14,746 nt of DNA, from IMG/VR virus record IMGVR_UViG_2896601577_000010. The stretch is one strand, 5' to 3'. The DNA is from a virus. Its lineage: Duplodnaviria > Heunggongvirae > Uroviricota > Caudoviricetes. A model generated the notes under the pieces. The model searched no databases, had not been told where the DNA came from, and worked only from the letters and a program-made list of their open reading frames with translations. Made by a program: the position numbers and the translations under genes. Each line of letters starts with the position of its first letter. Position 1 is the first letter of the stretch. Shown piece by piece: positions 2,396-3,382 of this stretch.

Positions 2396-3382
2396 TTATC
2401 TTCGGTCATACTGTTGCAGTGCCACAGCGAGCCCCCACGTCACCGTATCGCCGGGGTGGTAGGTTTCACCGGCTCTGAACACACCGCGGTAGAGCATCAC
2501 CGGCAGGGAAAATGTTTTTTCCGTACGCTGGCCACTGCTCTGCCGGACCACCACAGAGAACAACCGCTCACCCGTCATGCTGACGTCAATATCCGCCACC
2601 CCGTCAACCAGGCATTCCCATCCCCGCATCCCGTGCGTTTTTTCATACGCCCGCCAGAGTCCGCCCTGGTGTGTGGCATACGTGCCCCGGGGAAAGGATT
2701 TTTGAACGTCAATGGCGGGGAGTATTTCCAGAGCCGTGGCATCACGCCCGGCCTGCGGAGCCGGCAGGGCACTCACCGCATCCAGAACCGCCTTCTGCAG
2801 AACATCCGGATCGTAGTCACGACCATCACGCGGAACAGGGATATGGCTTACAGCCTCCGTCACCATCTGTTCAAGCATCGGACGCACATCATCCGGGGTG
2901 AGACTTTTACCGTCCGCCGGCTGCGGAATATTTGCGACCGCATCATTCACCGCCTGCTTCAGTACTTCCGGATCGTAGTCACGACCATCACGCGGAACAG
3001 GAATATGGCTTACAGCCTCTTTCACCATCTGCTCAAGCATCGGACGCACATCATCGGGGGTGATACTTTTGCCGTCTGCCGGCACCGGTATTTTCGCGAC
3101 CGCATCATTCACCGCCTGCTTCAGTACTTCCGGATCATAATCGCGACCATCACGCGGTAGCGGAATGGCCCCCACTGCGTCATCCACCATCGCCTGCAGA
3201 ACAGGGCTAACCTCATCCACCGTCACATGCTTCTGTAACAGAGCGGACAGGGAAGCCAGTTTCTCTTCAAACGCTTGTGCCTGCGCGCTCATCTTCTCCT
3301 CAAATGTGCGCTGTAAATCCGCCAGCACCGTGGCGAATTCTTCTCCCAGGGCACGAATAATGGACAGTTCACGTTCATTCAT
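2396..3382 (-). CDS. Phage protein of unknown function: N-terminal coiled coil, about 2.6 tandem copies of a 54-aa repeat, and a C-terminal ~110-aa domain
   Basis: Intact 328-aa ORF. Its ATG at 3382 lies 5 bp after the portal stop, preceded by AGGGGA. The repeat unit is IPVPRDGRDYDPEVLKQAVNDAV..IP.PADGKS.TPDDVRPMLEQMV.EAVSH. Confidence 0.6.
   Translation of the reverse strand: MNERELSIIRALGEEFATVLADLQRTFEEKMSAQAQAFEEKLASLSALLQKHVTVDEVSPVLQAMVDDAVGAIPLPRDGRDYDPEVLKQAVNDAVAKIPVPADGKSITPDDVRPMLEQMVKEAVSHIPVPRDGRDYDPEVLKQAVNDAVANIPQPADGKSLTPDDVRPMLEQMVTEAVSHIPVPRDGRDYDPDVLQKAVLDAVSALPAPQAGRDATALEILPAIDVQKSFPRGTYATHQGGLWRAYEKTHGMRGWECLVDGVADIDVSMTGERLFSVVVRQSSGQRTEKTFSLPVMLYRGVFRAGETYHPGDTVTWGLAVALQQYDRR
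2741..3166. repeat. In-frame tandem repeat with a 162-bp period, about 2.6 copies, inside the 328-aa CDS
   Basis: The motif CCGGATCGTAGTCACGACCATCACGCGGAACAGG recurs at 2806, 2968 and 3130 (spacing exactly 162 bp) with near-identical intervening sequence. Confidence 0.85.

Follow-up and report, generated by a model that had tools for sequence, protein, structure and literature searches.

A repeat-containing partner gene of an HK97-type phage portal and its inactivated copy in a decayed lambdoid prophage

Introduction

Within portal-terminase systems, MuF has been described as a protein that is packaged in the head (PMC3482391). SPP1 gp7 and Mu gpF, at 35-50 kDa, are bound to the portal and packaged in the head, and their genes lie directly after the portal gene. 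Portal-MuF fusions also occur, and in phage P22 the portal protein gp1 carries a barrel, a long helical segment that continues from the portal crown. The present study concerns a gene, here called X, that came to notice in a 14,746-nucleotide (nt) stretch of viral DNA (IMG/VR virus record IMGVR_UViG_2896601577_000010; the whole stretch is referred to as the window). Its copy in the window is an open reading frame (ORF) at positions 2396-3382, next to a gene for an HK97-type portal, and a preliminary description made from the letters alone had taken it for an intact gene of the head module with tandem repeats. The comparisons set out below indicate that X is a distinct phage gene that accompanies one group of portals, that it is sometimes fused to the portal, and that the window holds a dead copy.

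X resembles SPP1 gp7 and Mu gpF in the position of its gene directly after the portal and in the size of its product, but its binding to the portal is inferred from synteny and from two fusions, it has no sequence similarity to them, and it consists of helix-loop repeats and a beta domain like that of a carbohydrate-binding module (CBM). The C-terminal domain is also constant in X, whereas that of MuF is polymorphic. Fused variants of X are like the P22 gp1 barrel in that a helical segment extends from the portal crown; unlike gp1, X is normally a separate polypeptide, with a low-complexity linker of ~45 residues, modular repeats and a terminal beta domain. With T4 fibritin, the phi29 head fibres and collagen-like CBM-tipped fibres it shares short helices joined by loops, variable repeats and a C-terminal globular domain, as well as collagen-like tails in some members and structural neighbours in BFVD. 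It differs from such segmented fibres in its gene position and coupling to the portal, in the portal fusions and in its near-universal retention with the portal. The last ~50 residues have the fold of the CBM5/12 modules (Serratia ChiB, Streptomyces ChiC ChBD) and their motif YxxGDxVTWxGxxWxC...W, but the score is sub-threshold, the module lies within a larger beta domain and there are invariant His and Cys residues. By inference, X may be a functional analogue of SPP1 gp7 and MuF, going by where it is placed and how it fuses, or of the P22 barrel, going by topology.

The copy of X in the window

An ATG-initiated ORF of 328 amino acids (aa) is present on the minus strand, as the preliminary description had it, and it does follow the portal directly: the ATG is at 3380-3382 and the portal stop codon TGA at 3387-3389, with 4 nt between them. 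The claim that this ORF is intact and had escaped frameshifting proved wrong, because X carries a 2-nt deletion and the portal/X junction a further deletion of 1 nt, both relative to L071, a viral contig 99% identical to the window. In a global alignment with L071 the 2-nt deletion falls at ~2436-2437 and turns TGGGGCGGCTCG into TGGGGGCTCG. The frameshift exchanges the final 37 residues (GSLWHC...GGGK), which belong to the conserved end domain, for 12 unrelated residues. The lost end is still there in the other frame, since tblastn places residues 771-807 of the intact protein at 2436..2326 with 100% identity. Intact X is represented by a protein of 353 aa from Shigella flexneri K-315 (P0084), annotated as 'putative portal-like protein'. 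In intact relatives the head-tail connector gene starts within an overlap with the stop codon of X, and in the window homology to the connector starts at 2326. Judged by these alignments the window ORF is a pseudogene: it derives from a distinct phage gene and was inactivated recently. The copy is dead: it is frameshifted and it lies in a remnant in which the portal, capsid and terminase genes are broken.

Conservation and synteny

Genomes of alpha-, beta- and gammaproteobacteria, in which loci were located with the end domain of X, had X directly after the portal gene at 46 of 48 informative loci, and none of these was fused. The two genes overlapped by 4 nt (spacing -4) in 25 loci, with spacings of -1, -8 and -14 in most of the others. 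A survey of viral contigs was seeded with the portal alone and gave 80 contigs with portals 43-97% identical to that of Pseudomonas phage PAJU2; 73 of them had enough downstream sequence to be informative. X was found in 71 of the 73, and in 70 it lay at the portal stop. L189 (IMG/VR) was the sole viral contig in which an ORF with the X end domain lay ~2.4 kb downstream of the portal and did not abut it. Start/stop overlaps of this kind (ATGA or similar) point to translational coupling of X to the portal. On this comparative evidence X is a distinct conserved gene and a near-obligatory partner of one HK97-type portal subfamily.

The order of the head module is terminase, S78 protease-capsid fusion, small ORF, portal, X and head-tail connector (Phage_connect_1), and the same module, from the protease-capsid fusion through Phage_connect_1, was present at every locus with enough flanking sequence. 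The capsid gene, upstream of the portal, encodes an S78 prohead protease fused to an HK97-type capsid protein (~645 aa); the same fusion and gene order recur from Rhizobium to E. coli (window 4853-6784; L088-L137, L140). No solved structure with detectable sequence similarity to the capsid protein of the module was found.

The family is a large one, with 5782 clusters at 50% identity when matches are taken at E<=1e-3 and 627 at E<=1e-30. Among the best 150 representatives the median length is 394 aa, and almost all are stand-alone proteins. X matches were found in 1247 of 5426 complete E. coli genomes, with a median of 4 places per matching genome and roughly 8,600 places in all.

Separate and fused forms

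Diversity at the portal/X junction was examined in 83 informative E. coli-type loci (80 IMG/VR contigs plus reference loci). With a run of five G residues (G5) the portal ends in ...MFRGILKK-stop and overlaps the ATG of X, so that there are two genes; with G6 the sequence reads ...MFRGDTEKMTERE... and there is one fused portal-X gene. The separate form (G5) was found at 54 of the 83 loci and the fused form, always with G6, at 27. The remaining two, L071 and the window, have G4. The run in L071, GGGGA, reads as G5 and gives two genes with an ATGA overlap; the window retains two ORFs. Fused proteins of the E. coli type are 800-920 aa long and are labelled 'portal protein', and RefSeq annotates the homologous E. 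coli DNA as the C-terminal 350 residues of a 'phage portal protein' of 805-807 aa.

Both forms are found in named phages. Phage BP-4795 has a separate 454-aa portal and a 461-aa ORF59 with an ATGA overlap, and PAJU2 has the same two-gene arrangement, also with ATGA; the Stx2c phage 2851 encodes an 859-aa portal-X fusion. The records of 2851 and BP-4795 are complete phage genomes with species names of the International Committee on Taxonomy of Viruses, and from their original descriptions we take both to be infectious phages. An independent fusion of 1237 aa (P0244) in an unrelated, distant lineage, with a portal part 47% identical to that of BP-4795, occurs on four contigs, three of them >50 kb and two of those ~115 kb, in a module that is otherwise intact. 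On this distribution the portal-X fusion is a derived state and is not limited to dead prophages. That the gene is a genuine separate member of the head module, as had been proposed, is upheld by the two-gene overlap, which is the rule across alpha-, beta- and gammaproteobacteria and the majority state at E. coli-type loci; the in-frame portal fusion in about one third of the E. coli relatives had been missed.

The G-run itself (window 3394-3397; loci L001-L086) is polymorphic, occurring as G4, G5 and G6. G6 was seen on two junction haplotypes, ..CTGAGAAAATG and ..CTGCGAAAATG, both of which were also found with G5. The sharing of haplotypes between G5 and G6 suggests recurrent switching between the fused and separate states, or recombination. 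The ratio of non-synonymous to synonymous polymorphism (pN/pS) in the end domain was 0.195 in fused and 0.243 in separate alleles. By this measure the X part is under no less constraint in fused alleles than in separate ones, and relaxed selection in fused alleles was not seen in this test, which is confounded by alleles common to both classes.

Repeats and domain structure

Tandem Repeats Finder placed a repeat at 2787-3157 with a period of 162 bp (2.3 copies, 90% matches, score 602). Dissection of the repeat gave two units, 88.9% identical in DNA and 90.7% in amino acids, followed by a half unit, so that the near-identical 162-bp/54-aa repeats first noticed in the letters are borne out. Each 54-aa unit is made up of module A (25 aa, IPxPRDGRDYDPEVLKQAVNDAVAx) and module B (29 aa, IPxPADGKSxTPDDVRPMLEQMVxEAVSH), and in the window the modules follow one another as B'-A-B-A-B-A. 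An isoelectric point of 4.5 marks the repeat region as acidic. Lengths of X among close relatives step by 54 aa (245, 299, 353, 407, 461 and 569 aa), with a single-module variant of +29 aa in P0083, and the number of modules ranges from 2 to ~20 across the family. Units are 87-100% identical inside one protein and 52-67% between lineages, a pattern of concerted evolution. Whole-unit copy changes combined with homogenisation within the gene make this a variable-number in-frame tandem repeat, and the expectation that copy number would be prone to change agrees with the survey of repeats, in which 54-aa steps and occasional single modules were seen. The accompanying suggestion of a length-measuring protein is without support. 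Most of the database entries that cover the X locus are portal proteins marked 'partial', 540-575 aa long, and they lie at the ends of contigs of 1.6-3 kb; evidently the 162-bp repeat leads short-read assemblies to break there.

The intact protein (353 aa) was modelled with AlphaFold2 on the basis of 68 homologues. The N-terminus is modelled as one long helix (residues 3-50, predicted local distance difference test (pLDDT) 81-92) with a hydrophobic spacing of 3-4, which fits the coiled coil that had been proposed, and the start MNERELSxIxALGEEF is conserved across Enterobacteriaceae. The middle region consists of six short helices of 13-17 residues with 12-residue loops between them, and the C-terminal domain (residues ~220-345, pLDDT 96-98) is all-beta. 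This end domain of ~130 residues is highly conserved, with conserved Trp and Tyr residues, and is present in 148 of the 150 representatives. Its distal part, the last ~50 residues, has the CBM5/12 (chitin-binding) fold by three-dimensional comparison, and a precomputed hit to CBM_5_12 (PF02839) exists for two 402-aa relatives (P0115 and P0116). A motif is common to the two halves of the domain (KSYPRGTYATHxGGLWRA..GMRGW against GxEYxPGDTVTWGGSLWHC..GSKGW; hhalign P 0.001), which hints at an origin by tandem duplication. Two His and two Cys residues (THxGGLW, GWEC, LWHC) are invariant across divergent homologues, which is atypical of CBM5/12; they may make up a structural metal site or include a pair of disulphide-bonded cysteines.

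Family assignment

The annotation of X as a portal protein is not supported by domain searches. The portal domain (PF04860/TIGR01537) spans only residues 54-382 of the 807-aa fusion, solved portals of 393-431 aa align only to its residues 43-420, and the X proteins of 328 and 353 aa gave no portal match in Pfam or NCBIfam. Because the portal domain is absent, X is, on the searches made, not a portal protein, and the label is wrong. Matches of X in PHROGs were limited to 'portal protein' families derived from the fusion, with phrog_2271 covering the full length; phrog_1289 carries the same label.

There was likewise no match to Phage_Mu_F in Pfam at E<=1, and X is not a MuF protein because that domain match is lacking. 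Searches of Pfam, NCBIfam, PHROGs, PADLOC and the PDB, by sequence and profile, matched no MuF, scaffold, decoration or defence family, and no solved structure in the PDB shares sequence with X. X is without a Pfam, NCBIfam or PDB family that covers it. This accords with the earlier statement that X has no counterpart in the canonical HK97 or lambda head modules; homology to a well-characterised family, such as a scaffold or a Mu F-like protein, was looked for and was not found. Two other candidates were considered and rejected. QatB (PF28083, of the anti-phage Qat system) was a 'faint' precomputed hit on relatives and gave no PADLOC match at E<=1. Polymorphic C-terminal cargo, as in MuF toxins, is at odds with the retention of the same end domain in nearly all representatives. 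No publication describing the X protein was found.

Possible role of X

The reading that we prefer, with a probability of about 0.6, is that X is a distinct gene, inactivated in the window, for an accessory protein tethered to the portal. The N-terminal helix would be a docking or oligomerising element that docks at the crown end of the portal C-terminus, to which it would be covalently joined in the fused variants. The repeat array would serve as a flexible spacer of non-critical length, its repeat number changing by unequal recombination, and the beta domain would be the binding end, its partner being either a glycan or a protein. To our knowledge the portal C-terminus lies in the crown, in the capsid interior, in all solved portals (phi29, SPP1, P22, T4 and HK97); in the 454-residue portal of the present module the HK97-like fold stops at about residue 420. 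Because the C-terminus faces the interior in every solved portal, X would most likely sit inside the head on the portal crown, where it may take part in head assembly or DNA delivery, and the in-frame fusion to the portal argues that it acts at the portal C-terminus. With that terminus in the interior, the surface exposure proposed in the preliminary description is not established, and the fusions to the portal speak against it; the fibre-like character proposed along with it is favoured by the CBM5/12-like tip and by the collagen-like or tail-fibre-type tails. A more detailed picture is offered tentatively and may well be wrong: X would form an undescribed class of portal-crown appendage, with twelve modular, acidic fibres of variable length and lectin-like tips inside an HK97-like siphophage capsid, docked non-covalently to the portal or, through a single-G insertion, fused to it, and needed for head assembly or genome delivery. 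If it is true, the phages with a crown appendage include Stx1/Stx2c-converting phages and sequence type 131 (ST131) prophages.

A number of observations must be set against a portal-tethered protein in the head interior. Among viral proteins, the structures closest to the end domain lie at the tips of collagen-like fibres, of tail fibres and of CBM-bearing spikes, and some homologues end in collagen-like GXY tracts or in the tail-fibre-type motif AYxxAxxxGFxGTExEWxxSLKG. Fibre-like ends and acidic repeats of variable length are typical of external fibres and not of internal head proteins. The repeat array was modelled at low confidence (pLDDT 45-68, AlphaFold2 monomer), and the CBM_5_12 score of P0084 (residues 303-325) is below the Pfam gathering score (21.4 against 26.2 bits, E 2.7e-4). 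The argument from purifying selection on fused alleles is weakened, fused and separate loci having alleles in common, and no virion proteome or structure for X-carrying phages was found in the literature on BP-4795, 2851, PAJU2 and FSL SP-016.

The main rival, which we regard as unlikely, places the same protein outside: X would be an external neck or head fibre (a whisker), probably a trimeric segmented coiled coil near the portal and connector, with a glycan-binding CBM5/12 tip for reversible adsorption. Its best fold matches, which are phage tail fibres, receptor-binding complexes and CBM5/12-tipped or collagen-like viral proteins, speak for such a fibre, as do the collagen-like and tail-fibre-type tails of some homologues, the variable and homogenised repeat number familiar from surface fibres, and the overlap of the X stop with the connector start in intact relatives. 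On this view a portal-X fusion would keep the fibre inside the head, a loss of display that would be tolerated. Against it stand the in-frame fusions to the C-terminus of the portal, which are known from two independent cases, including that of the isolated phage 2851, and fused alleles that give no sign of relaxed constraint. X is, moreover, almost never missing from contigs of its portal subfamily, being present in 71 of 73; genes for dispensable decorations and whiskers tend to have a patchy distribution. We know of no collar or whiskers noted for X-carrying phages. An improbable variant of the interior location makes X a procapsid assembly factor, a portal-tethered, scaffold-like nucleator that recruits the protease-capsid fusion and is then degraded by the prohead protease, so that it is absent from mature virions. 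The strict linkage to a module with an S78 protease-capsid fusion and no separate scaffold gene, the translational coupling to the portal and the fusions, which put X on the interior side of the portal, are all in its favour, but known scaffolds have neither a spacer of variable length nor a CBM-type end domain, and the scaffolding families have no similarity to X.

Two further explanations bear on the gene itself. Programmed -1 frameshifting, or slippage at the G-run or A-run (CTG AAA AAA TGA), could yield both portal and portal-X from one mRNA, after the models of lambda gpG/GT and T7 10A/10B. X does lie in the -1 frame relative to the portal, and E. coli-type sequences have an A-run or G-run ahead of the stop, where a single tRNA slip would join the frames. 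The runs are not conserved, however, the corresponding sequence being ACC AAA TGA in other Enterobacteriaceae and ATT CAA TGA in PAJU2, with others different again; there is no canonical in-frame X XXY YYZ heptamer, and the ATGA overlap alone accounts for coupled expression. As a general mechanism it was rejected, the G-run and A-run being confined to E. coli-type sequences with no conserved slippery site, and it is considered very improbable here. The least probable explanation of all is that there is no separate gene, the sequence being the C-terminal domain of a long portal and the stand-alone ORF of the window an artefact of pseudogenisation. RefSeq portal proteins of 805-807 aa do cover the X sequence, phrog_2271 is a full-length 'portal protein' family and the window junction does have a 1-nt deletion, but the two-gene form occurs at 54 of 83 E. 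coli-type loci and is the only form at the 46 genome loci and 70 viral contigs of other lineages. L071, which is closest to the window, likewise has two genes that overlap as ATGA; the portal domain of Pfam reaches only to residue 382, and the length of solved portals is 393-431 aa. The idea that X is only a portal C-terminus is contradicted by all three surveys (E. coli-type loci, proteobacterial genomes and viral contigs).

The surrounding prophage

All genes of the window are on the minus strand, and together they make up the remnant of a lambdoid siphophage (Table 1). The window is a lambdoid prophage in decay, truncated by an insertion sequence (IS). Nearly all of the large head genes (2005-8507) are broken by small indels, mostly of a single base relative to L071; the portal has four 1-nt indels and, besides these, a 101-nt deletion. 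The indels could be true decay, as in Shigella, or homopolymer sequencing errors. An IS1 copy at 129-458 (InsA ORF 129-404, minus strand) adjoins the end of the homology to the major tail gene (459); IS1 apparently truncated the prophage, with loss of the rest of the tail module. An IS3-family element sits between the Rz lysis gene and a TonB_C-domain gene, upstream of the terminase. The TonB_C-domain protein (108 aa, 10098-10421) is encoded just upstream of HNH, the terminase small subunit (TerS) and the terminase large subunit (TerL), is unusual cargo at such a position and is 100% identical to the product of a 'TonB family protein' gene of the E. coli prophage L002. There is a 27-bp tandem duplication at 8571-8624 (2.0 copies, 85% matches) within the TerS/TerL overlap region.

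Table 1. Features of the window and of its copy of X, in descending order of position.
Feature	Positions	Strand	Remarks
Lysis genes (DUF1327, lysozyme, Rz)	12051-14186	minus	
IS3-family insertion	10833-11989		HTH_Tnp_1 orfA 11687-11989; rve integrase orfB 10833-11651
TonB_C gene, HNH, TerS	8507-10421	minus	
TerL	6851-8507	minus	broken, three frames
S78 protease-capsid fusion	4853-6784	minus	broken, three frames
73-aa ORF	4587-4805	minus	intact
Portal, HK97-type	3387-4638	minus	pseudogene, four frames and 101-nt deletion; Pfam Phage_portal on intact relative
Portal/X junction	3383..3397	minus	G-run 3394-3397 (G4 here), portal TGA 3387-3389, 4 nt, X start
X as gene, including displaced 3' end	2326-3382	minus	frameshifted
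ORF, truncated frameshifted copy of X	2396..3382	minus	328 aa, ATG start; compared with L071 and P0084
N-terminal amphipathic helix, aa 1-50	3233..3382	minus	presumed coiled-coil/portal-docking segment; AlphaFold2
Degenerate leading B-type module, aa 51-72, HVTVDEVSPVLQAMVDDAVGA	3167..3232	minus	resembles module B helix; AlphaFold2 helix 55-71
Repeat unit 1, 54 aa (A 25 aa + B 29 aa)	3005..3166	minus	
Repeat unit 2, 54 aa	2843..3004	minus	88.9% DNA identity to unit 1
Half unit 3	2768..2842	minus	module A only
C-terminal all-beta domain, from GRDATALEILP	2396..2758	minus	frameshift-truncated; distal CBM5/12-like motif cut
2-nt deletion site	2436..2437	minus	frameshifts X; global alignment with L071
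Original 3' end of X, SLWHCNSMTEDKPGEAHSSAWTLAAKRGRDAGGGK and stop	2323..2436	minus	other frame; tblastn
Head-tail connector	2005-2326	minus	three frames
Head closure	1645-1992	minus	intact
gp10-like gene	1202-1645	minus	intact
gp17	862-1202	minus	two frames
Major tail gene	459-794	minus	cut after residue 112 of 238, by IS1

Significance

The window copy itself has no biological consequence, because it is a pseudogene in a dead prophage. The 162-bp repeat locus is a possible typing marker. On comparative grounds the X family is best filed as a real, widespread and unannotated variant of the portal-associated accessory proteins, a mislabelled part of the head module in long-tailed Stx-converting phages and in very common prophages of E. 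coli and Shigella. As a separate, coupled partner of the portal, X is a concrete target for structural biology, and the natural fusions indicate where it acts.

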